A stretch of DNA of 64,000 nucleotides from a virus, in IMG/VR virus record IMGVR_UViG_3300045988_132703. One strand, given 5' to 3'. A program made the translations under genes and the position numbers. Shown piece by piece: positions 26,205 through 48,563 of the stretch. Under the pieces are notes generated by a model. The model searched no databases. It had not been told where the DNA came from and saw only the letters and a list, made by a program, of their open reading frames with translations. Position 1 is the stretch's first letter. Each line of letters opens with the position of its first letter.

Positions 26205-26288
26205 GCGACTGTGGCCCAGTGGACAAAGGCGGGTGCCTGCAAAGTACTTAATTTTTTATCGTTGGTTCAAATCCAACCAGTCGCTCCA
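26205..26288 (+). tRNA. tRNA-Cys (GCA), unusual 12-nt AT-rich variable region
   Basis: Acceptor GCGACTG/CAGTCGC; anticodon arm GGTGC-CTGCAAA-GTACT (two G.U); T arm GTTGG-TTCAAAT-CCAAC; encoded CCA. Confidence 0.7.
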
Positions 26289-26409
26289 GAACGGAGTTCC
26301 CTACTAGATTCCCAATGGGAATTGAACTTCACGGTTTGGTTGAGTTAGTCCGTCGTCCTCGGTATTGAGTAGACAATCAAGAGGGAAAGATACGAAAACT
26401 CTTTATTAT

Positions 26410-27636: not shown

Positions 27637-27665
27637 TTGACTTTTTATGATTTCTATGATATAAT
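27637..27665 (+). promoter_or_regulatory. early cassette promoter
   Basis: TTGACT-17-TATAAT, TGa extension. Confidence 0.7.
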
Positions 27666-27853: not shown

Positions 27854-27928
27854 GGATGGTTCGTACAACGGTTAGTACAAGAGACTGTTAATCTCCTAAT
27901 GGGGTTTCGACTACCTCACCGTCCGCCA
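27854..27928 (+). tRNA. tRNA-Asn (GTT)
   Basis: Acceptor GGATGGT/ACCGTCC; D arm GTAC-AACGGTTA-GTAC; loop CTGTTAA; T arm GGGGT-TTCGACT-ACCTC; CCA. Confidence 0.8.
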
Positions 27929-27963
27929 AAAGCGATAACAGAACGCTTCTTAATATCCCATTG

Positions 27964-28027
27964 CCAATAGGGGAGCATTGAGTAGCTATCAATGAGATTA
28001 AGGTGCCTCCACACCGGCCTTATATTT
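27964..28027 (+). repeat. conserved structured leader upstream of GIY-YIG gene, copy 1
   Basis: CCAATAGGGGAGCATTGAgTaGCtATCAATGAGATTAAGGTgCcTCC..ACCGGCCTTATATTT; nested stems GGAG/CTCC and CATTGA/TCAATG. Confidence 0.7.
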
Positions 28028-28043
28028 AATTATTCTGGAGGGA

Positions 28044-28961
28044 ATGGTTATGAAAGTTATTTGCGGGATTTATAAAATTACTAATCAAGTTAATGGTAAA
28101 TGTTACATTGGACAGAGCGTAAATATCGCTCGTCGATGGAGAGACCATAAAAAGACAAGTTCTGATGCAAGCTATAATGCTTATGATAGTGTGTTGCATA
28201 AAGCATTTAGAAAATATGGAATAGAAAATTTTTCTTTTGAAGTATTAGAAGAATGTTCTCAAGAAAGTTTAAATGCTAAAGAAATTTATTGGATAAATTA
28301 TTTTAATTCAGATGATTCTTAGAGAGGATATAATTTAACTCCTGGTGGAGATAATGTTGGTTAGAAATGTCGAAAATTAACTGACGAGCAGCTTTAGGAA
28401 TTAAAGCGTCTTTTAAAAACTACATTAATATCTCAAACTGATTTAGCAAAGTAGTTTAATATTAGCCAAATGGCAGTTAGTGATATTAATAGAGGAATAA
28501 GTTATCCAGATTTAAATGAAGATTATCCTTTAAGAGATTCTAATGCAATTCGAGGTTGGAATTTGCATCCAGAGAAGAACGGATTAAAAACAGAATCAAA
28601 AGTTGATAAATCTAATAAGTCTAGTAAATCTGAAGAGTTTATTAAAAGTAAAGATAAAGATAAACCTTTTCCAAAAGTAAAAATTAAAAATATAAAAATT
28701 TGTCCTGTTTGTGGAAAGGAATACGATAGTAAAGCAAAAACTTGTTCTGTTAAATGCGGAAGAATTCGTGTTAAAAAAGTTAAAATTGTTCCTAAACGGA
28801 GTGCTTTAAAGTACTTAATTCGCAATTACTCGTTCGAATGGATTGGTCGTTAGTTTGGTGTAACTGGAAATGCAATAAAGAAATATTGTGATAAATTTGA
28901 TTTACCAAGAACTAAAAAAGAAATTAATTCTTACTCGAATGAAGAATGGAAAAAGATTTAA
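28044..28961 (+). CDS. GIY-YIG homing endonuclease (Seg/I-TevI-like) with Zn-ribbon and HTH tail
   Basis: CGIYKITNQVNGKCYIGQS..RWRDHK, GYNLTPGG; 5 in-frame TAG (28320, 28362, 28395, 28452, 28851) join track ORFs 28044-28322 and 28470-28853; TAA 28959. Confidence 0.8.
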
Positions 28962-28985
28962 AATTTGCCGGCTTGCCGGCTTTAT

Positions 28986-29060
28986 GCATCTGTAGTTCAA
29001 TGATAGAATAACAAACTTTTAATTTGTATGATGCCAGTTTGACTCTGACCAGATGCACCA
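28986..29060 (+). tRNA. tRNA-Lys (TTT)
   Basis: Acceptor GCATCTG/CAGATGC; anticodon arm ACAAA-CTTTTAA-TTTGT; T loop TTTGACT; CCA. Confidence 0.75.
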
Positions 29061-29121
29061 TTAGCTCGTCTATCATGTGTAGAAAGAGTCTCTGAAACCG
29101 TTTATACGGTTTCTATTTTAT

Positions 29122-29207
29122 CCCTCATTAGACCATAAGGATTGGGGCTGGACTGTAAATCCAGTGTGTTTTACGCCGGGATGGTTCGATACCATCATGA
29201 GGGACCA
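29122..29207 (+). tRNA. tRNA-Tyr (GTA), class II
   Basis: Acceptor CCCTCAT/ATGAGGG; anticodon arm CTGGA-CTGTAAA-TCCAG; long variable arm; T arm GATGG-TTCGATA-CCATC; CCA. Confidence 0.85.
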
Positions 29208-29230
29208 TTTATTTTAAGAAAGGATATATT

Positions 29231-29515
29231 ATGGACTTTTTTGTTGGAAATTTTGCTGACTGGTTCAATAGTTATGCTAGGAATAAGTTATTTCGTCTTT
29301 GGTATAAGGAGGATGAAAAACTTGGTCTGGATGATGGCTATGATGGAGTTTGTCAGTATGTTTATCTGCGACAAGCGATCAATCTTGGTAACGATTGGTT
29401 GATTGGTTATGCTGTATTTGATGAACGAGAAAAAGATAATATGTATCCTAGTTTGAATTGGGCTAGATTGAGTGAAATTGATTTGGCCTGGTACAAAGAT
29501 GATGAGGAAAAGTAA
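29231..29515 (+). CDS. hypothetical protein
   Basis: Track ORF between tRNA-Tyr and tRNA-Asp. Confidence 0.55.
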   Translation: MDFFVGNFADWFNSYARNKLFRLWYKEDEKLGLDDGYDGVCQYVYLRQAINLGNDWLIGYAVFDEREKDNMYPSLNWARLSEIDLAWYKDDEEK

Positions 29516-29530
29516 TTTTCCTCTTTATAA

Positions 29531-29614
29531 TGTCCTGTAGCGCAAATGGATAGAGCGCCACCCTGTCACGGTGGAGGTATATTATTGCCGGTTCGAACCC
29601 GGTCAGGACAGCCA
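29531..29614 (+). tRNA. tRNA-Asp (GTC), unusual 12-nt AT-rich variable region
   Basis: Acceptor TGTCCTG/CAGGACA; anticodon arm CCACC-CTGTCAC-GGTGG; T arm GCCGG-TTCGAAC-CCGGT; CCA. Confidence 0.75.
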
Positions 29615-29904
29615 GATGCAATTCGGAAGGATTGCGAGTCTTGCGCCTAGGAGATAAGGCGTCAAATTGGATGATTTGTGACCTAAGCAGGTCGTTAAAA
29701 GGCTCAGTTTGGTAAAGACTGTAAAAAATTACCAGCCGAGAGAGGATGGATTTGAGGTAAACTACCACCGGCGCTTAGCGATATGTGGCTTAGTCATTTG
29801 TATTCGGCTTAATACAAAGAAAACGAAAGTAACCTTGAACGCATAGGAGTTCTAAAACTCTATGGACTAGACGTGAGGGATAGTCTGAAAACTCCCTCTT
29901 ATAT
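29615..29904 (+). ncRNA. structured non-coding spacer between tRNA-Asp and tRNA-Gly
   Basis: 290 nt with no plausible ORF; many local hairpins (GCGCC/GGCGT, GACC/GGTC, TGGTAA/TTACCA, GAGGG/CCCTC). Confidence 0.3.
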
Positions 29905-29979
29905 GTGCGAGTGGTATAACGACAATTATCCTTGCCTTCCAAGCAAGGGACGAGGGTTTAACTCCCTTCTCGCACACCA
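29905..29979 (+). tRNA. tRNA-Gly (TCC)
   Basis: Acceptor GTGCGAG/CTCGCAC; anticodon arm CTTGC-CTTCCAA-GCAAG; T arm GAGGG-TTTAACT-CCCTT; CCA; D loop lacks GG. Confidence 0.65.
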
Positions 29980-30464
29980 TTAATCAAAGTTTCTAATTAG
30001 GTTCAATCCTCCCAGAGGATTATAGCTGAAGTGGAGCAATGCCTGGGCTAGACACGCATTGTACGGTACACTGAAACACCAAATAGACCGCGGTATAATA
30101 GGTGTTATAATGCCGAATACTTAATTAAAGTAAAAGAACACCAATCTTTGATTAAATTGGGCTGGAGTTTATCTCCTTGGTCCACCAATCCAGTGGAATT
30201 TCTACTGGCGGCTTTATGACAGGCACGTAAGAAATCTGTCCCTCTGAATAGATACTTGCATAACAGCAAACTTTTCTAGTTGGAAGAATAAAAGTATTAC
30301 TTGATAATACTTTGATCGCTCGCGCATTCAAACTAGAGGTATCTAGTAATAAAAGAGGTCTGGAATGAATGTGTGAGTGTAGATTCTCAGTAATTACAGA
30401 ATGAGGATCGGTTCTTCACCGCCTAAGAGTGAACCCTCGCGGGAGTGGGTATCTCCCGTTTCAT
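29980..30464 (+). ncRNA. structured non-coding region downstream of tRNA-Gly
   Basis: 485 nt with no plausible ORF; composition less AT-rich than flanks; hairpins e.g. AATCCTC-CCA-GAGGATT. Confidence 0.3.
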
Positions 30465-30537
30465 GTCTCCTGAGCTGGGAACTCACGGATGTTTCATAAG
30501 CAACCTATGCACAGTTCAATTCTGTGAGGAGACACCA
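30465..30537 (+). tRNA. tRNA-like element, possible CAT anticodon (non-canonical D region)
   Basis: Acceptor GTCTCCT/AGGAGAC, A73, CCA; T arm CACAG-TTCAATT-CTGTG; candidate anticodon arm GATGT-TTCATAA-GCAAC; D arm does not fold canonically. Confidence 0.35.
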
Positions 30538-30587
30538 TTTACAGTTATAGCGGTGGCTGTAACAGAAATTTTTATCGTTTTAACAAA

Positions 30588-30617
30588 GGCCTCGGAGTAA
30601 AATCTGAGGTCTTTTTT
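30588..30617 (+). terminator. terminator fused to cassette promoter
   Basis: GGCCTCGGA-gtaaaa-TCTGAGGTC then TTTTTT. Confidence 0.7.
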
Positions 30618-30618
30618 A

Positions 30619-30647
30619 TTGACTTTAAGACAAATTTATGATATAAT
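30619..30647 (+). promoter_or_regulatory. early cassette promoter
   Basis: TTGACT-17-TATAAT, TGa extension. Confidence 0.7.
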
Positions 30648-30678
30648 ATTTATAGAAATCAAGAAAGGAAGTTGGAGA

Positions 30679-30912
30679 ATGACAGTTAAAGATTTGCTCA
30701 ATGTACTGTGCAAGTATCAGTGGATTGAGATTGCTGGCGATTTTTATAGTGAAAGTCCTCATTTCACGGGAACTGTAAAAGATTTAATGGGCGAAGATGA
30801 ATATGAGTTCCTTTGCGCGCAGAAAGTTAATGGAATATTTTCTGAAGCTGAAGATAAAAGCCATTATATTCTTGTTTATTATAATGATTCTGAGTTAGGA
30901 CAGGTGTGGTAA
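30679..30912 (+). CDS. hypothetical protein
   Basis: ATG 30679 after AAAGGAAGTTGGAG of the cassette leader. Confidence 0.55.
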   Translation: MTVKDLLNVLCKYQWIEIAGDFYSESPHFTGTVKDLMGEDEYEFLCAQKVNGIFSEAEDKSHYILVYYNDSELGQVW

Positions 30913-31130
30913 TGATTTTTAATGGAAAAGAAGTTGGAGAACTTCATCATCTAACCTTTCGCCATAGTAATTTTCCTAATAAGCAAAATTTTGCTCCAAC
31001 TGATTTATTTGGCGTAAAGAAATTCTTACGCGATCATCCAAAAGTTAATGTGCTTGATTTTTCGCAATTCTGCTCGGATAACACAGTCTATACCACTGTC
31101 TGGTATACTGTCCCGCGCAATCAAAATTAA
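30912..31130 (+). CDS. hypothetical protein
   Basis: TAATG overlap; track ORF 30906-31130. Confidence 0.5.
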   Translation: MIFNGKEVGELHHLTFRHSNFPNKQNFAPTDLFGVKKFLRDHPKVNVLDFSQFCSDNTVYTTVWYTVPRNQN

Positions 31131-31149
31131 ACTCAAAAGGAGGAGCATT

Positions 31150-31341
31150 ATGGAAATGTTTGCTTGGACTTTGTATTACACTTATACCAAGGATGGTAAA
31201 TCTACTCGACGAGTTTCTACCATTAATGCCCCTACTCTTGGACGAGCATTTCAGATCTTACGTCATTATATGATTAAAAATTCTGACGAATATATTACTG
31301 ATCTTTGCGCAGAGCGCAAGAAAATTAAGAAAGAGGATTAA
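31150..31341 (+). CDS. hypothetical protein
   Basis: AAAGGAGGAG then ATG 31150. Confidence 0.55.
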   Translation: MEMFAWTLYYTYTKDGKSTRRVSTINAPTLGRAFQILRHYMIKNSDEYITDLCAERKKIKKED

Positions 31342-31342
31342 A

Positions 31343-31852
31343 GTGAAAGAATTTTTAAAAACGGCAATAGCAGTTATTTTGTCAGCTATAATTATTTTTG
31401 GATGCTGTTTTTATACTTATGCTGACAAAGAATTGCCTGGTAAGGAAAAACAAATTACTGTCACGTCAGAATATAATGACAATGTGACTATTAAGAAGTT
31501 GGCTGAGCAATATCGAGGAGCATGGCAAGAGGGAACAGATTTTTCTCCTATCGCGCGGCGAATGGATTTAAAATTCGAAGGCAAAATTCAGGCTGACCAA
31601 ATTTCTGTCTCTGAAGATGGACGATTGATTGCTTCTACCAAAGATTTTTATTGGGACTATGGTAAAATCCCTGGATTTTATGCTATCTGTAATACCGAAA
31701 GTGATCCTTCTCCCTATGGCGCAAAGATTGTAATTTATCTCAATAGCACTAATCAAAAAAAGTTCAGTACAGGGCAGACTATTAAATTTAAAGCTGACTT
31801 TTGGAGGATGGATGGACGTACAATGGTTTTAACGAATGGAGTACTTGAATAA
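31343..31852 (+). CDS. membrane-anchored or secreted protein
   Basis: GTG start; N-terminal hydrophobic segment AIAVILSAIIIFGCCFY. Confidence 0.55.
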   Translation: MKEFLKTAIAVILSAIIIFGCCFYTYADKELPGKEKQITVTSEYNDNVTIKKLAEQYRGAWQEGTDFSPIARRMDLKFEGKIQADQISVSEDGRLIASTKDFYWDYGKIPGFYAICNTESDPSPYGAKIVIYLNSTNQKKFSTGQTIKFKADFWRMDGRTMVLTNGVLE

Positions 31853-32481
31853 TGCTTTTGCTTTTGATTGTCCACATTATAATTTTTATTATAATGGGTT
31901 TTATTTCTTCTTTGTGCGGCGTAACATATGACGAAGATGAACTTATAGGTATGATATGTCCTTTTATTGGAATTGCAACAACTATTTATGCTATTCAAAC
32001 AGCAATAGAAAAGAAATTAGATAAATATGATTTGATTGATGTTGATTTTAAAGATGTAAATGATAATATTATTCGAGAAGATGACAGGTCGATTCATATA
32101 GACCATAAAGTATGCTTGTCTTACAAACAGTTTGTCGATTTTTATTCTATTAATCCAGCGCGTTGGAACATTGTCAAGCAAACATATCCTGAAAGGCGCT
32201 ATTTGAGATTTAAAGACGGCGAAACTTGGTACTGGGTTTATTTTAAAACTGCTAAGGAATATAGAGCCGCAGTAAAATATTATTATATGCGAGAAGAAGT
32301 AAGAAATGGTCCTCGCGCAGTTAATTATAACCCGCAAGAAAAAGAAAAACTCGACAAAGATACGGCTGCTTTACTTCGTTGTGTTCAAGCTGACATCAAT
32401 AAAATTAAATTCCAAGCAGAATCTGAGATCAATGAAGCTACCGATGGTATCAAAAAAATTTCAGAACGTCTAAATAATTAA
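31852..32481 (+). CDS. membrane protein
   Basis: Two N-terminal hydrophobic helices; TAATG overlap. Confidence 0.55.
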   Translation: MLLLLIVHIIIFIIMGFISSLCGVTYDEDELIGMICPFIGIATTIYAIQTAIEKKLDKYDLIDVDFKDVNDNIIREDDRSIHIDHKVCLSYKQFVDFYSINPARWNIVKQTYPERRYLRFKDGETWYWVYFKTAKEYRAAVKYYYMREEVRNGPRAVNYNPQEKEKLDKDTAALLRCVQADINKIKFQAESEINEATDGIKKISERLNN

Positions 32482-32488
32482 TTTTAAG

Positions 32489-32519
32489 TCAATAGGTATC
32501 TAGCCTATTGACTTTTTTA
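32489..32519 (+). terminator. terminator overlapping -35
   Basis: TCAATAGG-tatctag-CCTATTGA then CTTTTTT. Confidence 0.55.
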
Positions 32520-32536
32520 TTTATATATGGTATAAT
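32508..32536 (+). promoter_or_regulatory. early cassette promoter
   Basis: TTGACT-17-TATAAT, TGg extension; -35 overlaps the terminator stem. Confidence 0.7.
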
Positions 32537-32569
32537 ATTTATAGAAAATGAGAAAGGAAGAATGATGAG

Positions 32570-33394
32570 ATGATAATGAAAGAACTTGCTACTTTTGATG
32601 AAAAAGTTTTTAATCAGATGATGCGCCATGTCAAGTTTGCAGAATCAAAAGGTTATGATGTTATTTTGGCGTCAGTTTATGGTTCTCAGAATTATGCTCT
32701 TGAGACTAAGGAATCTGATGTTGATTCTTATTTGATTGTCATGCCTTCTCTTGAAGATTTAGCTTTGAATCGTAAACCTATTTCAAAAGAATTGATGTAC
32801 GTTGACGAAAAGGGTGTTCCTAATGATGAACACGTTGTTATCAAAGATTTTCGCGTTTTCGTTGAAGCATTGATGAATGCAGATTTTCATGCTCTTGAAG
32901 TTGTAAGTTCTAAATATACTACTACCATTCGTTGGACTGATTTAGATGAAAAAGTAAATCCTTTCGAGGATATGGATTGTTTTACTGCCGTCTTACCTAA
33001 ATTTTATTGGCGCGTAGTGAATTGTTTTGAGAGCGCGCTTAAGAGTAGAAAGTTGGAATGTTTAGATTGGAATAAGAAAGGCGACCGCAAAACTTTGGTT
33101 GATATTGTTTTGCATTATTTCGTTTTTCTTCATGCTTTTGAGCGCGATAAATATCCTTATTCGACTTATTCTAAAAATTTGCGTGACACTCTTCTTGAGA
33201 TTAAAAATGGTTCAATGTCTAAAGAAGATGCTCTTGCGATGTTTGATTTGAATACCATGCTCTACAATGTGCGCGACCGCTGGGAACATGACCAGCCCGC
33301 AGATAAAGGAAAAACTGAAAACCAGCTTCATAAAGAGTTAAATCAAATGTTAATTGAACAATTTGAAGTTAAATTTGAGGAGCAATGTTTATGA
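32570..33394 (+). CDS. Pol-beta-superfamily nucleotidyltransferase (RNA-repair-associated Nuc-transf/RlaP-like, tentative)
   Basis: VYGSQNYALETKESDVDSYLIV = G[SG]-x(n)-D.D nucleotidyltransferase signature near the N-terminus; about 270 aa. Confidence 0.6.
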   Translation: MIMKELATFDEKVFNQMMRHVKFAESKGYDVILASVYGSQNYALETKESDVDSYLIVMPSLEDLALNRKPISKELMYVDEKGVPNDEHVVIKDFRVFVEALMNADFHALEVVSSKYTTTIRWTDLDEKVNPFEDMDCFTAVLPKFYWRVVNCFESALKSRKLECLDWNKKGDRKTLVDIVLHYFVFLHAFERDKYPYSTYSKNLRDTLLEIKNGSMSKEDALAMFDLNTMLYNVRDRWEHDQPADKGKTENQLHKELNQMLIEQFEVKFEEQCL

Positions 33395-33771
33395 ATCATC
33401 CTCGTACTCGTGCAGAACGTCGAATCGCGAAGAAAAAAGAGTTCAATAGAAAGTATTTTTTGAGCCAGAATGCTGACTATCCAGCACCTTATTTTTTAAC
33501 TTATGCTCGGAACAAAGGGCGGCGTCGGACTTTACATACTAAACTTCCTGTTGATTATGATTTTAAAGTACCTGGAGAATATAGAAATTATCATTCTTGG
33601 CGCGGAAAGTACAGAGTTGAAAAAATTTATTTTCGTCAGCTTGGTCATGCTAGTCGTTATCATTATTTCAAGAGGAAAGCAAATCAAGCCGTACGTAGGA
33701 ACAAGAATTTTTCGACTCGGAAAAGTAATGATTATCGTAGAGTTTATGAATATGCTTGGATGGTGGATTAA
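33385..33771 (+). CDS. highly basic protein
   Basis: Track ORF; R/K/Y-rich throughout. Confidence 0.5.
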   Translation: MFMNHPRTRAERRIAKKKEFNRKYFLSQNADYPAPYFLTYARNKGRRRTLHTKLPVDYDFKVPGEYRNYHSWRGKYRVEKIYFRQLGHASRYHYFKRKANQAVRRNKNFSTRKSNDYRRVYEYAWMVD

Positions 33772-34067
33772 TGGATAATTATATTGTAAGTGTTTCACTT
33801 CCCGCTGCGCCGGCAATGACTCCTCAAGGACCGATTTTGCCAACTGACAGCTTGGTAACTTTCTTTTGTTCTTGCGGCGGGCGCATTGATTTTAATGATA
33901 TGAATATTGCTAGTGAAGCAATTAATGAGGATAGGGTCATTTGTCCGCAATGTCACCAAAAGCATAAAAGAAAAGATTATATGTGGCTATTTGGCGGAAA
34001 AGGGCAAATCATCGCTTTGCCGCAATCAATGTATAAAGAGGTAGAAAATGAAAATGAAGAAGGATAA
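33771..34067 (+). CDS. zinc-ribbon protein
   Basis: CSCGG...CPQC; TAATG overlap. Confidence 0.5.
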   Translation: MDNYIVSVSLPAAPAMTPQGPILPTDSLVTFFCSCGGRIDFNDMNIASEAINEDRVICPQCHQKHKRKDYMWLFGGKGQIIALPQSMYKEVENENEEG

Positions 34068-34245
34068 TAATCTTCAGTTGACTCCTGATGGAGAAAGATT
34101 TAAAAATTATTTGCAAGATATGTTGAACGGTGAACAGTATAGAGTAGCCCTTTTTGAAGAAAATATTAAAGAGTTGGGCGACAAAATGGGACTTGAGCGT
34201 ATGGATATGATTAAGGCTTTTCTGGTAGTAATGGAGGAACTTTAA
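34048..34245 (+). CDS. hypothetical protein
   Basis: Track ORF. Confidence 0.5.
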   Translation: MKMKKDNNLQLTPDGERFKNYLQDMLNGEQYRVALFEENIKELGDKMGLERMDMIKAFLVVMEEL

Positions 34246-34634
34246 TGGCTTATTTGATTTTGTTTTCGATGCTGTTTCTTCATTTGATTGCTGATTATAA
34301 CCTTCAAGGCATTCTCGCGCAATTCAAGCAAAAGGAATGGTGGAAGAAAAATTATCCTCAGCCAAAATATAAACACGACTGGATAATTGCCCTTATTGAA
34401 CACTCTTTTATGTGGAGTTTTTTAGTTTACCTACCTGTGTTTGCGTATATGGGTATGACTAGCGATTGGGAAACAGCTAGTTATTTATTCATTTATTGCA
34501 TTATATTAAATACTGGAATTCATGCGGTGGTAGACAATGAGAAAGCCAATGATGGAAGTCTTAGTTTGTTTGGTGACCAGTTTTTACATTTTGTGCAGAT
34601 TTTTGCAACTTGGCTATGCCTTTTGATTAAATGA
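34245..34634 (+). CDS. DUF3307-like membrane protein
   Basis: FLHLIADYNLQG motif and several hydrophobic helices. Confidence 0.55.
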   Translation: MAYLILFSMLFLHLIADYNLQGILAQFKQKEWWKKNYPQPKYKHDWIIALIEHSFMWSFLVYLPVFAYMGMTSDWETASYLFIYCIILNTGIHAVVDNEKANDGSLSLFGDQFLHFVQIFATWLCLLIK

Positions 34635-34663
34635 TTTACTTTTCTCCAATCTTATGCTATAAT
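34635..34663 (+). promoter_or_regulatory. early cassette promoter (variant -35 TTTACT)
   Basis: TTTACT-17-TATAAT, TGc extension. Confidence 0.6.
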
Positions 34664-34674
34664 TATTATAGAAA

Positions 34675-34995
34675 ATGAGGAAAGGAAATGAGATTATGAG
34701 TGAAAAGAATTATGAGACTAAATGGCATACTGTTCGTGAATCTTATCTTCGAATGCTTATTGGTAAAGCTATGAAATACGACATTCTTATGGATGAAGAT
34801 TCTAAAATTGAAATCAATAGCGAAGATTTCTATGGTGAAATTTATCGAGGTCTAACTGGTGAGGAACTCACTATTCCCAATGATCAAGCTCACTTTATCA
34901 AGCGCGTAAATTCCGTCAACAGCGAAATCATCAAGCAGACTGATGAGACTCTTGAAAAACTTGATCTTGCCGTTAAGAAACATGGATTTGAATAA
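34675..34995 (+). CDS. hypothetical protein
   Basis: Track ORF directly after cassette promoter 34635. Confidence 0.55.
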   Translation: MRKGNEIMSEKNYETKWHTVRESYLRMLIGKAMKYDILMDEDSKIEINSEDFYGEIYRGLTGEELTIPNDQAHFIKRVNSVNSEIIKQTDETLEKLDLAVKKHGFE

Positions 34996-35024
34996 TTGAC
35001 TTTTCTTCAAATCTATGCTATAAT
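34996..35024 (+). promoter_or_regulatory. early cassette promoter (tRNA/HNH unit)
   Basis: TTGACT-17-TATAAT, TGc extension. Confidence 0.7.
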
Positions 35025-35031
35025 ATTTATA

Positions 35032-35506
35032 GAAAGTTAAGGAAAGATTACTTAATTTTTACGACAGTTTTGTTGGCAGACACTTCACTGAGTAAAAATG
35101 TGAGCTGCTAGGTTTACGAGAGGGGTCACAGGCTACCAGAAATGGAGCTGAACCGAGCCAAACCTCCTAACGCAGAAGTTGCGTTCATAAATTACTTGCA
35201 ATCTTAGCTTAAAGTGACAGGGCGCTAAAAGATTGTTTTGCCACTCTTAATTGAGTGGTAAGGTTCACTATAATTGATACCTCCACGCGGTGTGAACTGG
35301 ACAATCTGATGAACTTGGAAGTCAGATTGACGAAAATCAATAGACATGAAAGACGAAATGAATACAAGCTCTCTTTCGTCGGTTAAATTGCACCAGCTTC
35401 GATGGTAGAATGAATTAACGTTCTGATAATTGTCGGCGCAATGCGCATCTACGGCACGGGTAAAGACGTCCCCTGCAAAAGCAATTAGACCATGTCGTTT
35501 TATTAT
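35032..35506 (+). ncRNA. promoter-driven non-coding region upstream of tRNA-Glu-like gene
   Basis: Starts at cassette promoter 34996-35024; no + strand ORF; only a - strand ORF (35225-35632) that overlaps the tRNA-like gene. Confidence 0.3.
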
Positions 35507-35583
35507 GACCCCTTCGTCTAAAGGTGAGGATAGGAGATTTTCAATCTCCCGATGCATTGGGTTCAAGTCCCGCAGGGGGGCCA
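35507..35583 (+). tRNA. tRNA-Glu (TTC)-like, irregular acceptor end
   Basis: GACCCCTTCGTCTAAAGG.. resembles bacterial tRNA-Glu 5' half; anticodon arm GGAGA-TTTTCAA-TCTCC; T loop TTCAAGT; only 5 of 7 acceptor pairs. Confidence 0.5.
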
Positions 35584-35606
35584 CCACTTTTAATTGAGGA
35601 TAACTT

Positions 35607-36344
35607 ATGGATTCTTTGGTAGATAAATACACTTAGCAAGAGTTAGAATAGATAGTTTAGCTATCTACATCTTATAAAGATTTAGCTCAAAAGTTAGGTT
35701 ATACTGCATTTTCCAGTGATTTAAAATATTTTTTAGAAAATAAATTTTCTGATTTTGATACTTCGCATTTTCAAACAAGAGTTTCAAAAGAAAAGCGGGT
35801 AGAAAGAACAGAGGAAAATGTTTTTATAGAAGATTCTACAGCTTCTCAGCAAACTTTAAGAAGATGGTATCGAAAAGGTAATTATACTCCTTATTAGTGT
35901 TCTATTTGCCATCTTGAACCAATCTGGCAAGGTAAGCCATTGACTTTAATCCTTGACCATATTAATGGCATCAATAATGACGACAGATTAGAAAATCTTC
36001 GATGGGTTTGCCCAAATTGTAACCAATAGCTTGAAACAACTAATGGTAAGAATCGAAAAAATTATTCTAAAAAATATTATTGCATTGATTGTGGAAAAGA
36101 ACTTTCTGGGGATTTCCAAAGATGTAAAAGTTGCGCTGGGAAAATTAGAATTGTTCCTGTTACAGAAATGAGTGTTTCAAGAGATGAATTGAAATCTTTA
36201 ATCCGAAATAAAACTTTTGTTGAGATAGGAAAAGATTTTGGAGTTTCCGATAATGCTGTTCGAAAATGGTGTGATAAGTTAAATTTGCCAAGAACCAAAT
36301 CTTTAATTAAAACCTATTCTGATGAAGAATGGGATAAGCTATGA
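35607..36344 (+). CDS. HNH homing endonuclease with Zn-ribbon and HTH tail
   Basis: LDHINGINNDDRLENLRWVCPNCN; GAGGA then ATG 35607; 5 in-frame TAG (35634, 35649, 35658, 35895, 36027); no standard-code ORF in the track. Confidence 0.75.
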
Positions 36345-36358
36345 AAGTAGCTTTATTT

Positions 36359-36435
36359 ACTCCGATAGTTTAATTGGTGAAAATTTTCGACTGATAATCG
36401 AAAGAGTGCCTGTTCGATTCAGGCTCGGAGTACCA
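36359..36435 (+). tRNA. tRNA-Ile (GAT)
   Basis: Acceptor ACTCCGA/TCGGAGT; anticodon arm TTCGA-CTGATAA-TCGAA; T arm GCCTG-TTCGATT-CAGGC; CCA. Confidence 0.8.
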
Positions 36436-36568
36436 GTTGCGTGACAGTCGTAGAACTCCTATCGGCTGTCTAAAGAACTAGGGTAAGGCTTATGAGTGGA
36501 GTTCGCTCATAAGACGCGCGAGAAAACGTTGCCCAGAGTTTTGCTTCAAAGTCACTCGCGCATTATAG
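36436..36568 (+). ncRNA. structured spacer between tRNA-Ile and the class II tRNA
   Basis: Stems GACAG/CTGTC, CTTATGAG/CTCATAAG, GCGCGAG/CTCGCGC. Confidence 0.3.
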
Positions 36569-36660
36569 CGGCCACTGGAAGAAGCGGTTAAATTCGCCTG
36601 GCCCTCAACCAGGAGTTCTCGTAAGAGATATTGCCAGTTCAAATCTGGCGTGGTCGACCA
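36569..36660 (+). tRNA. class II tRNA with non-canonical anticodon loop CCCTCAA (CTC by numbering; Leu-CAA if the U-turn is shifted)
   Basis: Acceptor CGGCCAC/GTGGTCG, A73, CCA; 3-bp D stem; anticodon stem CCTGG/CCAGG; variable arm TCTC-GTAA-GAGA; T arm GCCAG-TTCAAAT-CTGGC. Confidence 0.6.
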
Positions 36661-36842
36661 AAGTATTGATACCTTCAAGCCTCAAGAAACAGTTTAATAG
36701 AATACTAGTTGCCTATTGAATTAAAGTATTGAGAAACTATAAATCAAAAGATATGTTGTGGAACGGGAATGATACTAACCGGAAAGCGTAAATCGTATTA
36801 GAGAAAAATGGTCTGGAACTCTTTAAATTATCGGACTACCGT

Positions 36843-36928
36843 GCCGGAGTCGTATAGTGGTCGATTACAACGGTTTTGTAAGCCGTCAGCATATGCTCGC
36901 GGGAGTCCGAATCTCCCCTCCGGCTCCA
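36843..36928 (+). tRNA. tRNA-Thr (TGT) with 14-nt variable arm
   Basis: Acceptor GCCGGAG/CTCCGGC; anticodon arm ACGGT-TTTGTAA-GCCGT; variable CAGCATATGCTCGC; T arm GGGAG-TCCGAAT-CTCCC; CCA. Confidence 0.6.
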
Positions 36929-36932
36929 TTAT

Positions 36933-37007
36933 GCGTTTGTAGTTCAATGGAAGAATCGCAGACTCTTAATCTGTCAGATGCAGGTTCAAGTCCTGTCAAA
37001 CGCACCA
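36933..37007 (+). tRNA. tRNA-Lys (CTT)
   Basis: Acceptor GCGTTTG/CAAACGC; anticodon arm GCAGA-CTCTTAA-TCTGT; T arm GCAGG-TTCAAGT-CCTGT; CCA. Confidence 0.8.
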
Positions 37008-37135
37008 TTTAAAGACCATCACAGCATCTGAAATTGGCTTATAACCCGTTGATTCCAGTTCGAATCTGGTGGTTCTATCTTAAAAAGAGGAACTTAGCTC
37101 AATGGTAGAGCAGCGTATTGTTGGTCTTGTTTTAT

Positions 37136-37212
37136 GCGCTCATGGCTCAATTGGAAAGAGTACTCGGCTACGAACCGAGAGATTAAGAGTTCAAGTCTCT
37201 TTGAGCGTACCA
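37136..37212 (+). tRNA. tRNA-Arg (ACG)
   Basis: Acceptor GCGCTCA/TGAGCGT; anticodon arm CTCGG-CTACGAA-CCGAG; T arm AAGAG-TTCAAGT-CTCTT; CCA. Confidence 0.85.
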
Positions 37213-37286
37213 CTTGTAATTTCTACGAATCTTATACAAATCTCCTTGTCGTTCGCGGCTCGACGCTAATAAAGCCGCACTCCTAT

Positions 37287-37363
37287 GCGGCTGTAATTCA
37301 GTTGGATAGAATATCGGACTTCTAATCCGAAAGTCAAGAGTTTGAGTCTCTTCAGCCGCCCCA
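37287..37363 (+). tRNA. tRNA-Arg (TCT)
   Basis: Acceptor GCGGCTG/CAGCCGC; anticodon arm TCGGA-CTTCTAA-TCCGA; T arm AAGAG-TTTGAGT-CTCTT; CCA. Confidence 0.85.
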
Positions 37364-37427
37364 ATAGGGGAGCATTGATTCGCGATCAATGAGATTAAGG
37401 TACTCCTAATACCGGCCTTATATTTTA
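37361..37427 (+). repeat. conserved structured leader upstream of GIY-YIG gene, copy 2
   Basis: Same about 64-nt sequence as 27964-28027 with loop differences; begins at the CCA of tRNA-Arg(TCT). Confidence 0.7.
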
Positions 37428-37450
37428 TTTATCATTTAGGAGTGATAGAT

Positions 37451-38296
37451 ATGCCTATTTGTGGTATTTATAAAATTACTAATTAGATCAATGGGAAATG
37501 TTATATTGGACAAAGTATAAACATTAAACAAAGATGGAGAGCGCATAAAACAAAAGCCTTTAGTCCCTCTAATTCATAGTATGAATGTCCTTTATATAGA
37601 GCCATTCGAAAATATGGCTTAGAGAATTTTTCTTTTGAGGTTTTAGAAGAATGCCCAGCAGAAGAATTGAATCAAAAAGAATAGCAGAATGTTTCTTTCT
37701 TTTAGTCTAATAATCCATCTTTTGGTTATAACTTAACTCCAGGCGGCGATGCCTAGGGAGATAAATGTAGAAAATTAACTGAATTACAAGTTAAAGAAGT
37801 TCAAGATTTGCTACTTTTTAGTTTATTATCTCAAGAAGAAATAAGTAAAAAATTTGGAGTTACTCAAAGAACTATCAGTTCAATAAATACTGGAGAATGT
37901 TATTTTGATCCAAAAATAAATTACCCAATCCGTTCTCACCAAGAAGGAGCGAGAGTCTCCTTTTTGAAAAAGGGACAAGAAATTTCTCCAGACAATTATA
38001 TAACAAAATTATCTGATTCTTTATTTAAAAAATGTGAATATTGTGGTAAAAATATTTAGCATTCTGACAATAAACGCTTTTGTAGTTAGAAGTGCGCACA
38101 AATGGCAAGTCGAATTGTAGAAAGACCAAGTAGAGAAATTTTAAAAAGTGAAATTCGAGAGTAGCCTTTTACGTCTTTAGGTAAAAAATATAGTGTCTCA
38201 GATAATGCAGTTAGGCGCTGGTGTAAAACTTATAATTTACCATTTAAAAAATCAGAAATTAAATCCTATTCAGATGAGCAATGGGATAAAATATAA
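37451..38296 (+). CDS. GIY-YIG homing endonuclease with Zn-ribbon and HTH tail
   Basis: CGIYKITN[TAG]INGKCYIGQS..RWRAHK, GYNLTPGG; 8 in-frame TAG; track ORF 37808-38059 is an internal piece; TAA 38294. Confidence 0.75.
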
Positions 38297-38332
38297 ATTC
38301 TAAGTTTCTGGCTTTGATAAAGCCAGATTTTA

Positions 38333-42721: not shown

Positions 42722-42889
42722 ATGAGTAAAGCAAAATTGTTATCGCCTGAATGGTCTTCTATTGCCAAATGGTGCGAAGAAGTTGGGGTAAATCAATCAT
42801 CCGAACTGTTAAAATCAATGAGGACATGACAGATATTTATATGGATTTGCTTTCTGATGAATGGTTTGATGAAGAGAAAGGAAAAGAAT

Positions 42890-43555
42890 ATGGATTTTAA
42901 TAAGTATCCGAAAATCGAGACTTGTTTTCAGCGTTCTCTTGAGACTAAAAAACTGCTTAATGATGTCTGGCGCTCGGATGAGCTTCAGTACCTCAAGGAT
43001 TGTGAGTGGATTTGGACTGAGAAGGTCGATGGCACCAATATCCAGATTCATTGGGATGGGCATCGAGTTGAGTTCGGTGGTCGTACTGAGCGTGCGAACA
43101 TTCCTCAGCCGCTGATGGATTATCTTGAGACTACTTTTGGCGGAGAGGTTAATGAGGAGATTTTCGAGCAGCTCTTTGGCGAGACTGAGGTTGTCCTCTT
43201 TGGTGAGGGTTACGGTCCGAAGATTCAGAGTGGTGGCGGCTATCGTAAAGATGTTAGCTTTATTCTGTTCGATGTGAAGATTGGCAACTTCTGGCTTCTG
43301 CGTGACAAGGTTGAGGAGATTGCTAAGCAGCTTAACATTGATGTGGTTCCGCTGATTGGCTATGGGCCTATCCAGTTTGCTATTGATTTTGTCGAGGAGC
43401 ATCCAATGTCGCGGGTTGCACAGAATAATGGCGGCAGTGGTTGTTATATGGAGGGTTTGGTTGGCACTCCGACTGTGGGACTACTTCGCCGTAATGGTGA
43501 GCGCATCCAGGTGAAAATTAAGTGGAATGATTTTAAAGAGTTTGTAGAGGAGTAA
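42890..43555 (+). CDS. ATP-dependent RNA ligase-like nucleotidyltransferase
   Basis: Motif I EKVDGTN (KxDGxN), FGEGYG, EGLVG, QVKIKW; ATG 42890 inside track ORF 42857-43555. Confidence 0.7.
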   Translation: MDFNKYPKIETCFQRSLETKKLLNDVWRSDELQYLKDCEWIWTEKVDGTNIQIHWDGHRVEFGGRTERANIPQPLMDYLETTFGGEVNEEIFEQLFGETEVVLFGEGYGPKIQSGGGYRKDVSFILFDVKIGNFWLLRDKVEEIAKQLNIDVVPLIGYGPIQFAIDFVEEHPMSRVAQNNGGSGCYMEGLVGTPTVGLLRRNGERIQVKIKWNDFKEFVEE

Positions 43556-47970: not shown

Positions 47971-48126
47971 ATGGTTTTTGCAAGTGTTCTTTTGATTGCG
48001 GCATTGATTATGAATGTACTTGCATTTGCAGTTTATGGTTTTTTATGGTTTAATTTTATTGTTTGTATTGTAGATGCAATTTTGTTAATTGTAAATTTTG
48101 TATTCTTTTTCTTTAGGGAAAAATAA
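47971..48126 (+). CDS. small membrane protein (51 aa)
   Basis: MVFASVLLIAALIMNVLAFAVYGFLWFNFIVCIVDAILLIVNFVFFFF; below the track cut-off. Confidence 0.45.
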   Translation: MVFASVLLIAALIMNVLAFAVYGFLWFNFIVCIVDAILLIVNFVFFFFREK

Positions 48127-48563
48127 TGGCGCAAAAGAATTTCTACCCGAAAAAAATTTTATATAGCTAGAAGCCACGAAAACATATTGTTTTCAACGAA
48201 AAAGATGGCTCTCTTGGAGAACAACGGATTCGAAAAATCCTTACGCAAAATCTATGTAATTTTGTCGAATAGAAGACTTTCGACGGATTGAAAGATTAGA
48301 AGCCGCTTAGATTTGATTTTTCGTTAGAGTTTAATGGTAAGGTTGTATGCTTAATTGAGTATCAAGGAGAACAGCATTTTAAAGCTGTTGAACATTTCGG
48401 TGGAATGGAAGGATTTTAGTTGCGCCAAAAGCATGATGCGATGAAATTTCAATATTGCCAATAGCATAAGATTCCGTTGTTTTATATAAGATATGATGAA
48501 GATTTAGATTAGCGGCTCGCGCAAATAATTCAATGGTATACAGTTTTTAAATGGATGGTGTAA
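48126..48563 (+). CDS. PD-(D/E)xK-like endonuclease (probable free-standing homing endonuclease)
   Basis: RFDFSLEFNGKVVCLIEYQGEQHF core; 6 in-frame TAG; no standard-code ORF in the track; TAA 48561. Confidence 0.55.

Follow-up and report, generated by a model that had tools for sequence, protein, structure and literature searches.

How do homing endonuclease genes with different catalytic heads come to lie among the transfer RNA (tRNA) genes of one phage, and what governs their expression there? We addressed this question in IMG/VR virus record IMGVR_UViG_3300045988_132703, of which one stretch of 64,000 nucleotides (nt), hereafter the window, was analyzed. It appears to come from a phage of the human gut, about 176 kb in size, in whose late genes TAG serves as a sense codon. 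Three endonuclease genes lie in the tRNA region of the window: two encode GIY-YIG proteins (GIY1 and GIY2) and are preceded by a conserved leader, the third encodes an HNH protein, and all three proteins end in a common module, which we call the tail. Our overall reading, to which we assign a probability of about 0.6, is that these genes belong to a family of SegB-like mobile cassettes whose translation is held back by the leader RNA and by in-frame amber (TAG) codons. The genes are as follows:

28050–28961, + strand: GIY1, GIY-YIG homing endonuclease gene; in-frame TAGs at 28320, 28362, 28395, 28452 and 28851; tail encoded at 28701–28958
35607–36344, + strand: HNH homing endonuclease gene; five in-frame TAGs; tail encoded at 36081–36341; without the structured leader
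37451–38296, + strand: GIY2, GIY-YIG homing endonuclease gene; eight in-frame TAGs; tail encoded at 38033–38293

Nuclease heads, amber codons and a shared tail

With TAG read as Q, both GIY-YIG proteins passed the Pfam model PF01541 (GIY1 41 bits, GIY2 36.6 bits; cut-off 22.6), and the GIY...YIG motif and the Arg, Glu and Asn residues are seen in their translations. GIY2 also passed TIGR01453 'group I intron endonuclease' (86.3 bits; cut-off 56), and BLASTP aligned the two proteins over their full length at 41% identity (E 7e-80). The HNH protein stayed under the Pfam cut-offs (HNH_3, 20.2 versus 24.8 bits; HNH, 16.7 versus 21.4 bits); it matched PHROG 10822 'HNH endonuclease' over its whole length (1e-41), and the motif LDHINGINNDDRLENLRWVCPNCN is visible with CxxC pairs on either side.

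An initial annotation, made from the sequence, had called these three genes at 28044–28961, 35607–36344 and 37451–38296. The genes hold up and are open only when TAG is read through, a point that the annotation left unmentioned: under translation table 11 none of the three ranges holds an open reading frame (ORF), their in-frame stops (5, 5 and 8, 18 in total) are all TAG, and with TAG as a sense codon all three are intact. TAG made up 18 of their 829 codons, as against 0 of 4,323 in the neighboring ORFs (24,205–46,118; Fisher p 4e-15) and 44 of 6,631 in the ORFs at 321–23,560 (Fisher p 9e-5), which we presume from their size and TAG content to be late or structural genes. The same division was seen at large, as the large + strand ORFs at 1–23,560 contain TAGs and the ORFs at ~24,200–46,100 do not. 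In its CAA:CAG ratio, too, the trio (22:4) resembles the presumed late ORFs (180:42) rather than the neighbors (54:77). In an alignment of 17 related GIY-YIG genes, the residue most often found opposite TAG was Gln (11% versus a background of 2.4%), and the phage therefore probably reads TAG as a sense codon, with Gln the likely amino acid. Given the TAG enrichment and the codon data, we regard the window as part of a TAG-recoding phage and the endonuclease genes as recoding islands in a TAG-free region. A word-indexed protein search of public databases returned only 31 matches, all of 58–160 amino acids (aa), which look like gene calls cut at TAG. Standard-code gene calling fragments such genes, so that mobile elements of recoded phages are under-annotated. 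Another TAG-rich nuclease gene may lie elsewhere in the window, at 48126–48563 (+ strand): this ORF of 145 aa has about seven in-frame TAGs, contains an IEYQGEQHF motif and matches DUF2726 weakly.

The two GIY-YIG genes and the HNH gene had been annotated as ending in a common C-terminal module of about 90 aa, and pairwise BLASTP left little doubt of it: the similarity was significant between GIY1 and the HNH protein (47% identity over 87 aa, E 8e-23) and between GIY2 and the HNH protein (45% over 93 aa, E 2e-20). The tail is a zinc ribbon plus helix-turn-helix (HTH) DNA-binding module. In an AlphaFold model built from 22 sequences (mean pLDDT, the predicted local distance difference test, 85), two short pairs of strands lie at the cysteines and lead into a helical bundle. 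The tail is described by no model of Pfam or NCBIfam and in Pfam drew only weak generic HTH and zinc-ribbon matches; the three PHROG families that include it are whole-protein families. We considered an I-TevI-like or any other solved structure for the tail and set it aside, as the PDB sequence search gave no match below E 0.05 and Foldseek nothing significant (best E 0.5, to an HTH of LuxR/GerE type; the HTH of sigma region 4 was also among the weak top matches).

We then asked how widely the tail occurs. A tail profile searched against 1.84 billion cluster representatives (clusters at 50% identity) matched 7,652 proteins at E ≤ 1e-3, of which 1,860 remained at E ≤ 1e-10; most are about 250 aa long and have the tail at the C-terminus. 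Among 113 of the top matches scanned with Pfam, the head was GIY-YIG in 36, HNH_3 in 24, HNH in 12, PDDEXK_5 in 11 and LAGLIDADG_3 in 1. In related loci, again with TAG as Q, the tail follows several GIY-YIG subfamilies and the HNH type of the window, as well as a second HNH type (contig L020) and an HNH_3-like head (contigs L021 and L022). The cultured Enterococcus phage PEf771/EFDG1 encodes a 190-aa GIY-YIG protein ending in ...NVSDNAVRKWCKSYGLP, which is the same tail, and its gene, written in the standard code, lies inside a tRNA cluster. The proposal that heads are swapped on a common targeting domain thus gains in breadth: the tail occurs on other HNH types, GIY-YIG subfamilies, PDDEXK_5 and LAGLIDADG_3, and head swapping is well supported as a general feature that is not specific to the window. 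The tail is an uncatalogued, widespread module joined to at least four nuclease superfamilies, and it merits a profile of its own; if it does read tRNA-gene sequence, it could be useful for nuclease engineering.

This arrangement recalls known modular endonucleases. NUMOD/IENR modules are small DNA-binding modules common to homing endonucleases. Like them, the tail is one small module behind unrelated heads (here GIY-YIG, HNH, PD-(D/E)XK and LAGLIDADG); unlike them, the three window proteins gave no match to NUMOD1, NUMOD3 or NUMOD4 in Pfam at E ≤ 1. With I-TevI and other T4 intron endonucleases the window proteins share the order of GIY-YIG domain, linker and C-terminal zinc element followed by an HTH, whereas the tail has no sequence or fold match to the DNA-binding domain of I-TevI (Foldseek ranked 1i3j 47th, TM 0.24) and the genes here are free-standing rather than intron-encoded.

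Two further genes with related parts were observed. In L022 (2728–3410), and likewise in L021, apparent tRNA halves flank an HNH_3-like gene that has the same tail; the tRNA seems to be split in the anticodon loop (GGGTGTAGCTCAGTTGGCAGAGCACTTGACTTTTA ... AATCAAGTGG...CCA) with poor acceptor pairing, and the gene may be an intron-borne copy. Within the window, a 356-aa ORF with four TAGs (321–1391, + strand; also L003 9687–10601) has an unusual architecture: its long N-terminal part is apparently a coiled coil, a GIY-YIG domain (PF01541, 1.4e-8) stands at the C-terminus, and the DNA-binding tail is absent. This ORF adjoins apparent structural genes.

Cassettes inserted directly behind tRNA CCA ends

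Where the cassettes begin and end was deduced from the tRNA genes around them, in the window and in related contigs. The relevant features of the window are:

27854–27928, + strand: tRNA-Asn(GTT), called by ARAGORN (Rfam 52.4 bits)
27929–27966, + strand: 38-nt stretch ending in ...CCCATTGCCA; leader 1 starts directly after its CCA
35508–35587, + strand: tRNA-Glu(TTC)-like gene, damaged, with the HNH gene directly downstream (Rfam 30.3 bits; cut-off 29)
36359–36435, + strand: tRNA-Ile(GAT), directly downstream of the HNH gene
36658–36672, + strand: empty site B, the CCA of tRNA-Glu(CTC) followed by AAGTATTGATACC; filled in L002 and L004
37287–37363, + strand: tRNA-Arg(TCT), whose CCA abuts leader 2

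Pattern scans of viral and metagenome collections yielded 15 distinct leaders, all on contigs of human-gut origin of up to 179 kb. Every one of the 15 starts with CCA followed by (A/C)TAGGGGAGC, mostly as CCAA. In the window, copy 2 had been described as starting at the CCA of tRNA-Arg(TCT), and that CCA indeed stands at 37361–37363. Cassettes of leader plus GIY-YIG gene occur behind at least nine different tRNA 3′ contexts in related contigs, the CCA belonging to tRNA-Arg(TCT), Glu(CTC), Phe(GAA), Pro(TGG), Arg(ACG), Gly(TCC) and Thr(TGT), among others, or to the short CCA-ending stretch after tRNA-Asn. That 38-nt stretch, which also precedes the leader in L005, L008, L010 and L014, may be the remnant of a tRNA 3′ end.

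Comparison of otherwise collinear relatives revealed presence/absence polymorphism of the GIY-YIG cassettes at three sites. At site A, behind tRNA-Arg(TCT), the window has a cassette and L004 has none. Site B, empty in the window, reads CCA/ATAGGGG...TGATATAAATAG/GTGTTGATACC in L004, where the sequence after the stop codon runs ...TATAAATAG/GTGTTGATACC (slashes mark the junctions). Site E is empty in L003, and in L001 it holds a 94-nt solo leader fused to the last codons of the ORF, which is an internal deletion. From the filled and empty alleles at these sites, the cassette starts at the base that follows the CCA and ends about 10 nt beyond the stop codon. All three junctions fall at position 0 of their spacers (182, 245 and 51 nt), which would be very unlikely if insertion were random. 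Together with the many tRNA contexts, these alleles substantiate the earlier suggestion that the family spreads among tRNA spacers, and they place the leader in the inserted cassette, not in a duplicated tRNA spacer.

The start of the HNH gene lies 20 nt downstream of the tRNA-Glu(TTC)-like gene's CCA. At the corresponding site of L004, tRNA-Glu(TTC) and tRNA-Ile(GAT) lie 3 nt apart, and in the window the 738-nt gene stands between them. ARAGORN called no tRNA at 35508–35587; compared with the intact L004 copy, the window gene has two extra nt in the variable/T region and two extra G in the 3′ strand of the acceptor. A leaderless GIY-YIG gene with the tail was also found in L005 (5419–6245), directly after the CCA of tRNA-Cys at a site that is empty in the window (26205–26300). 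This insert ends with a diverged copy of the tRNA T arm and acceptor 3′ strand (GTGAGTTAGACTCTCACCTGCCGCTCCA), and CGCTCCA stands at both of its ends.

Several tRNAs beside polymorphic endonuclease genes differ between the genomes compared, being mosaic or damaged:

tRNA-Arg(TCT), window versus L004: five differences, all in the 3′ part, from position 48
tRNA-Glu(TTC), window versus L004: two indels in the window copy, which spoil the fold
tRNA-Ile(GAT), window 36359–36435 versus L004 759–833: 63% identical; L004 lacks the HNH gene
tRNA-Thr(TGT), window 36843–36928 versus L004 2161–2236: 59% identical

In addition, tRNA-Pro(TGG) is 84% identical between L001 with its solo leader and the empty L003, most of the 12 differences lying in the T arm. 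Six control tRNAs from the same genome pairs were 95–100% identical, and two flanking tRNAs were unaltered (tRNA-Glu(CTC) at site B, 95%; tRNA-Cys at the L005 site, 98%). We read the altered flanking tRNAs as traces of co-conversion or replacement around putative homing events.

A covarying leader RNA

In the leader, three hairpins (H1–H3) are predicted, the last of which ends at the start codon and includes the Shine–Dalgarno sequence (SD) of the GIY-YIG gene:

27967–28049, + strand: leader 1; H1 27976–27994; H2 28002–28015; H3 28028–28049; anti-SD loop CCTCCA of H2 at 28006–28011 and SD TGGAGG in the H3 loop at 28036–28041
37364–37450, + strand: leader 2; H1 37373–37391; H2 37399–37413 with loop CTCCTAA; H3 37427–37450 with the SD loop TTTAGGAG at 37435–37442

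A covariance model (R1) scored leader 1 at 105.5 bits (27964–28055) and leader 2 at 100.5 bits (37361–37456). The 28 specified bases of the pattern GGGGAGCATTGA-N7-TCAATGAGATTAAGGT are matched exactly at 27970–28004 and at 37367–37401, and by 0 of 100 shuffles. The initial annotation was right to see a conserved leader before both GIY-YIG genes, which measures 83–87 nt up to the start codon instead of about 64 nt. Its start of GIY1 at 28044 likewise gives way to 28050, the likelier position because the SD spacing is then 8 nt and the ATG follows H3 directly, as in all other copies of the leader.

We evaluated pairing in a model-based alignment of 14 distinct leader rows. Paired cells amounted to 99.4%, compared with 32–56% when the partners were slid; seven pairs change on both sides, a number reached by 0 of 500 shuffles; and H1, H2 and H3 contain no unpaired cell. 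Both MAFFT and the model-based alignment misplace a gap in H1 and thereby hide one covarying pair, which was counted in a hand parse that showed a G-C to A-U switch in H1 and G-U intermediates besides. The stems occur in these variants:

H1: CATTGA/TCAATG, CATTAA/TTAATG and CGCTGA/TCAGCG
H2: GGTG/CACC, GGTA/TACC and GACG/CGTC, with G-U intermediates
H3: TATTC/GAATA and TATCA/TGATA, with many A-U/G-U switches

Since the G-U intermediates appear on the sense strand, the element is better understood as an RNA than as a DNA site, and the compensatory changes support all three hairpins of the predicted fold. A structured leader had been proposed from nested stems, and covariation upholds the idea with a different fold, in which two further hairpins carry evidence. 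The CATTGA/TCAATG inner stem is real and corresponds to H1, while the GGAG/CTCC outer stem was rejected, being incompatible with the covarying GGTG/CACC hairpin H2 and giving a nested fold of −7.9 kcal/mol, as against −13.2 kcal/mol for P1+H1+H2. The minimum-energy fold consists of H1, H2, H3 and the closing helix P1 (AUAGGG:CCUUAU); the last shows no covariation, is broken in two sequences and was retained only as a thermodynamic suggestion. By inspection, an alternative stem, UAAGG:CCUUA, is broken in the GACG variant and was discarded.

Mean identity among leaders is 84%, whereas the adjoining stretch coding for the GIY motif, the most conserved, averages 73% (59% at third positions), and the GIY-YIG proteins of different subfamilies are 40–58% identical. 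The leader was more conserved than the adjoining coding stretch in 108 of 113 pairs, and we therefore conclude that it is under selection. Hairpin variants are shuffled relative to the protein phylogeny (the win1 and L008 proteins, for example, are 90% identical and have different H1 types), which indicates recombination among leaders.

Rfam has no family match at 27964–28050 or 37361–37450. In 185,579 species genomes, the 15 pattern matches were all due to chance, and the covariance model scored none of them. No leader was found at the Enterococcus phage locus or at the chance matches of the viral scan, and megablast of the region against GenBank phages gave no match. In the searches made, then, the leader is limited to this group of related gut phages.

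Proposed homing and gated translation, and rival roles for the leader

What could such a leader do between a tRNA and an endonuclease gene? The recognition site of T4 SegB holds GGTTCRANTCC, the T-psi-C motif, and the preferred cut falls immediately after CCAR (PMC2330249). T4 endonuclease genes, segB included, have their ribosome-binding site masked on read-through transcripts (PMC2988022; PMC2330249). The comparison with segB drawn by the initial annotation therefore turned out apt and closer than first thought, for SegB cuts right after CCAR, just where the cassettes begin with CCA(A). Other likenesses are the GIY-YIG head, the position of the gene between tRNA genes with which it is, here probably, co-transcribed, flanking tRNA markers that differ between alleles with and without the gene, and a 5′ RNA structure predicted to mask the ribosome-binding site. 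The homology, by contrast, is limited to the head (28% identity, E 3e-10 in BLASTP with GIY2), and the resemblance is accordingly one of function rather than family membership. Moreover, the predicted hairpin of segB buries the SD and AUG in a stable stem of ~20 kcal/mol, whereas here a weak hairpin carries the SD in its loop, opposite a complementary loop; in addition, the leader here is a conserved motif common to many diverged paralogous cassettes, and the genes are rich in amber codons.

Two promoters of near-consensus sigma-70 type lie upstream of the units of tRNA and endonuclease genes:

27637–27665, + strand: TTGACT-17-TATAAT with TG (11/12 match), upstream of tRNA-Asn, leader 1 and GIY1
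34996–35024, + strand: the same promoter, upstream of a non-coding stretch, the tRNA array, the HNH gene and GIY2

They belong to a set of seven identical promoters (11/12 matches, extended −10 TG), all on the + strand (26094, 27450, 27637, 30619, 32508, 34996 and 38483) and spread through the region of tRNAs and small ORFs, which look like strong, early promoters used by the host polymerase. We infer early transcription from 27637, and the position of the two promoters suggests that the endonuclease genes are probably transcribed early with the tRNAs.

In the model that we favor, tRNA arrays have been colonized by free-standing homing endonuclease genes with one C-terminal DNA-binding module. 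By analogy with T4 SegB, their products would recognize tRNA genes by the conserved 3′ part and cleave immediately behind CCA(R), which would account for the CCA junction of every copy. H3 would present the ribosome-binding site in its loop and end at the AUG. The H2 loop (CCUCCA or CUCCUAA) could pair with the SD loop of H3 in a loop–loop anti-SD:SD contact, with predicted energies of −8.6 kcal/mol for CCUCCA:UGGAGG in most copies and −7.6 kcal/mol for CUCCUAA:UUAGGAG in the second variant; between the variants, a change in one loop goes with a change in the other. As the SD lies in the loop of H3 (−4.1 and −4.8 kcal/mol) and is not buried in a stable stem, masking needs this contact, which would prevent production of the endonuclease from early read-through transcripts. 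The dense amber codons would form a second lock, opened once TAG is read through, presumably by a suppressor tRNA. The invariant 5′ GGGGAG could compete for the same H2 loop. In Agate phages, a recoded endonuclease gene is expected to be expressed late in infection (bioRxiv 10.1101/2021.08.26.457843). In both cases the reassigned stop codon is concentrated in an endonuclease gene that lies among early genes; in Agate phages, however, the codon is TGA and the gene intron-encoded, whereas here it is TAG, the genes are free-standing in tRNA arrays, and an RNA leader would add to the control. Delayed expression through a masked ribosome-binding site, here putative, is known for I-TevI and other T4 intron endonucleases.

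Several observations speak against this model. The folding energy of whole leaders is no better than that of shuffles (z −0.24 to −1.4) and single hairpins are weak (−2.3 to −5.1 kcal/mol), so that the structural support comes from covariation; and because the distinct leaders come from closely related phages, the independent compensatory events are few. An SD and an anti-SD-like loop are complementary by nature, and the support for their pairing comes from one coordinated change between two variants. We considered L001 as a third coordinated change of the two loops and rejected it, since a deletion has joined its leader to the ORF's 3′ end (...GATGAAGAATGGG...). Simple masking of the SD would not need H1, the invariant AUAGGGGAGC and GAGAUUAAG, or GGCCUUAUA. 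The SegB-like specificity is an analogy, as the tail is not homologous to the DNA-binding region of SegB, whose C-terminal half has no similarity to the zinc ribbon and HTH. None of the 14 tRNAs called by ARAGORN in the 64-kb window is a suppressor with the anticodon CTA. Finally, tail-bearing genes of other phages lie in tRNA arrays but not exactly at the CCA.

The main rival, which we consider unlikely, assigns the leader a role in RNA processing or stability at the tRNA/mRNA junction: cut near the CCA, whether by an RNase of the host or as a small self-cleaving ribozyme, it would free the tRNA 3′ end, leaving the tRNA unharmed and the endonuclease mRNA with a structured, protected 5′ end. 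It would suit the 5′ boundary exactly at the CCA in every copy, the near-invariant nucleotides at the junction and the covarying stems. RNase E processes segB transcripts (PMC2988022), theta ribozymes, which are minimal relatives of the hepatitis delta virus (HDV) ribozyme, do such a job beside tRNAs in TAG-recoding gut phages, with the 5′ end of the structured RNA abutting the tRNA 3′ end (PMC10879173), and a candidate HDV-like ribozyme occurs elsewhere in the same tRNA region. An HDV-like or theta ribozyme at the leaders was nevertheless rejected, as no Rfam ribozyme model matched there even at E ≤ 5 and, by inspection, the helix order (5′ GGAG, H1, H2 with its CUCC loop) does not fit the HDV nested double pseudoknot; unlike theta ribozymes, too, the leader is always followed by an endonuclease ORF, whose ribosome-binding site it includes. 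Furthermore, the leaderless HNH gene and the GIY-YIG gene of L005 also follow a CCA directly, so the exact junction is better explained by a cut site than by a function of the leader, and a SegB cut after CCAR already explains it. A variant in which the leader is a new small RNA device that processes the tRNA/leader junction in addition to gating translation, either by cleaving itself as a ribozyme of an undescribed type or by acting as a mimic to bring in a host RNase, seems improbable to us; if true, the selfish gene would bring its own signal for tRNA 3′-end maturation and set the 5′ end of its own mRNA.

We also hold it improbable that the leader works as DNA, as a promoter or an operator bound by the endonuclease tail in the manner of I-TevI, which represses itself at its late promoter (PMC2988022). 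CATTGA-N7-TCAATG is palindromic, TTATATTT or TATAAATTT stands between H2 and H3, and leader and tail move together in the GIY-YIG cassettes, which all speak for a DNA site. Yet compensatory changes affect three positions in each of two short inverted repeats, through G-U and not A-C intermediates, and the HNH gene has the same tail without a leader. An embedded late promoter gained no support: no sigma-70-type promoter is predicted inside the leader, no late promoter was identified, unlike the I-TevI case, and neither the TTATATTT motif nor CCTTATATTT... recurs upstream of other genes in the window. That the leader has no function of its own and was kept by recent cassette spread or gene conversion, as the shuffled hairpin variants and the single group of related phages might suggest, is the least probable reading, given how far proteins and third positions have diverged beside the leaders and that stem changes are compensatory throughout H1–H3.

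If translation is indeed gated, a portable regulatory RNA absent from Rfam moves with selfish genes from tRNA to tRNA, and a double lock of RNA structure and amber codons, within early tRNA operons that seem to be strongly transcribed, offers a testable case of selfish genes limiting harm to their host phage. Precedents exist for endonuclease genes in tRNA clusters, shared DNA-binding modules, masking of ribosome-binding sites and recoded endonuclease genes. New here are a specific leader RNA that is supported by covariation and moves with the cassettes, the recurrence of an exact CCA junction at many tRNAs, and the size and head diversity of the unmodelled tail family.

The tRNA region holds further elements. 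Between GIY2 and tRNA-Arg(CCT) lies what looks like a terminator:

38307–38327, + strand: small hairpin followed by TTTTAT

Directly after tRNA-Arg(TCT), in the slot that tRNA-Arg(CCT) occupies in the window, ARAGORN found an odd tRNA, conceivably the amber suppressor, of undetermined anticodon ('ccta', 'cc') in L004 (2837–2913) and L016 (4062–4138). Several tRNAs of the window exceed the usual length (Cys 84, Asp 84, Thr 86 and Glu(CTC) 92 nt).

The candidate HDV-like ribozyme (35260–35348, + strand), whose sequence is identical in L004, lies within the non-coding stretch 35000–35508, in a conserved region of ~450–550 nt between the promoter at 34996 and the tRNA-Glu(TTC)-like gene. Three HDV-family models of Rfam match there, each below its cut-off (RF00094, 27.6 bits; RF02682 'HDV-F-prausnitzii', 25 bits, with E 0.018 in a search of 621 nt; drz-agam-1, 19 bits). 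By eye, P1 (GGUUCAC/GUGAACU), P3 (ACC/GGU) with L3 UCCACGC, P1.1 (GG:CC), P4 (CAAUCUGA/UCAGAUUG) and a C in J4/2 can be drawn.

Between tRNA-Lys(CTT) and tRNA-Arg(ACG), a tRNA-like fragment (37027–37139, + strand) has the T arm CCAGTTCGAATCTGG and weakly matches YrlA, a Y RNA-like family (24.8 bits; cut-off 69). A few kb downstream of the tRNA arrays, a gene for a protein with an RNA ligase domain (42857–43552, + strand; PF09414, 1.7e-16) adjoins the gene of an SPFH/Band 7 protein.

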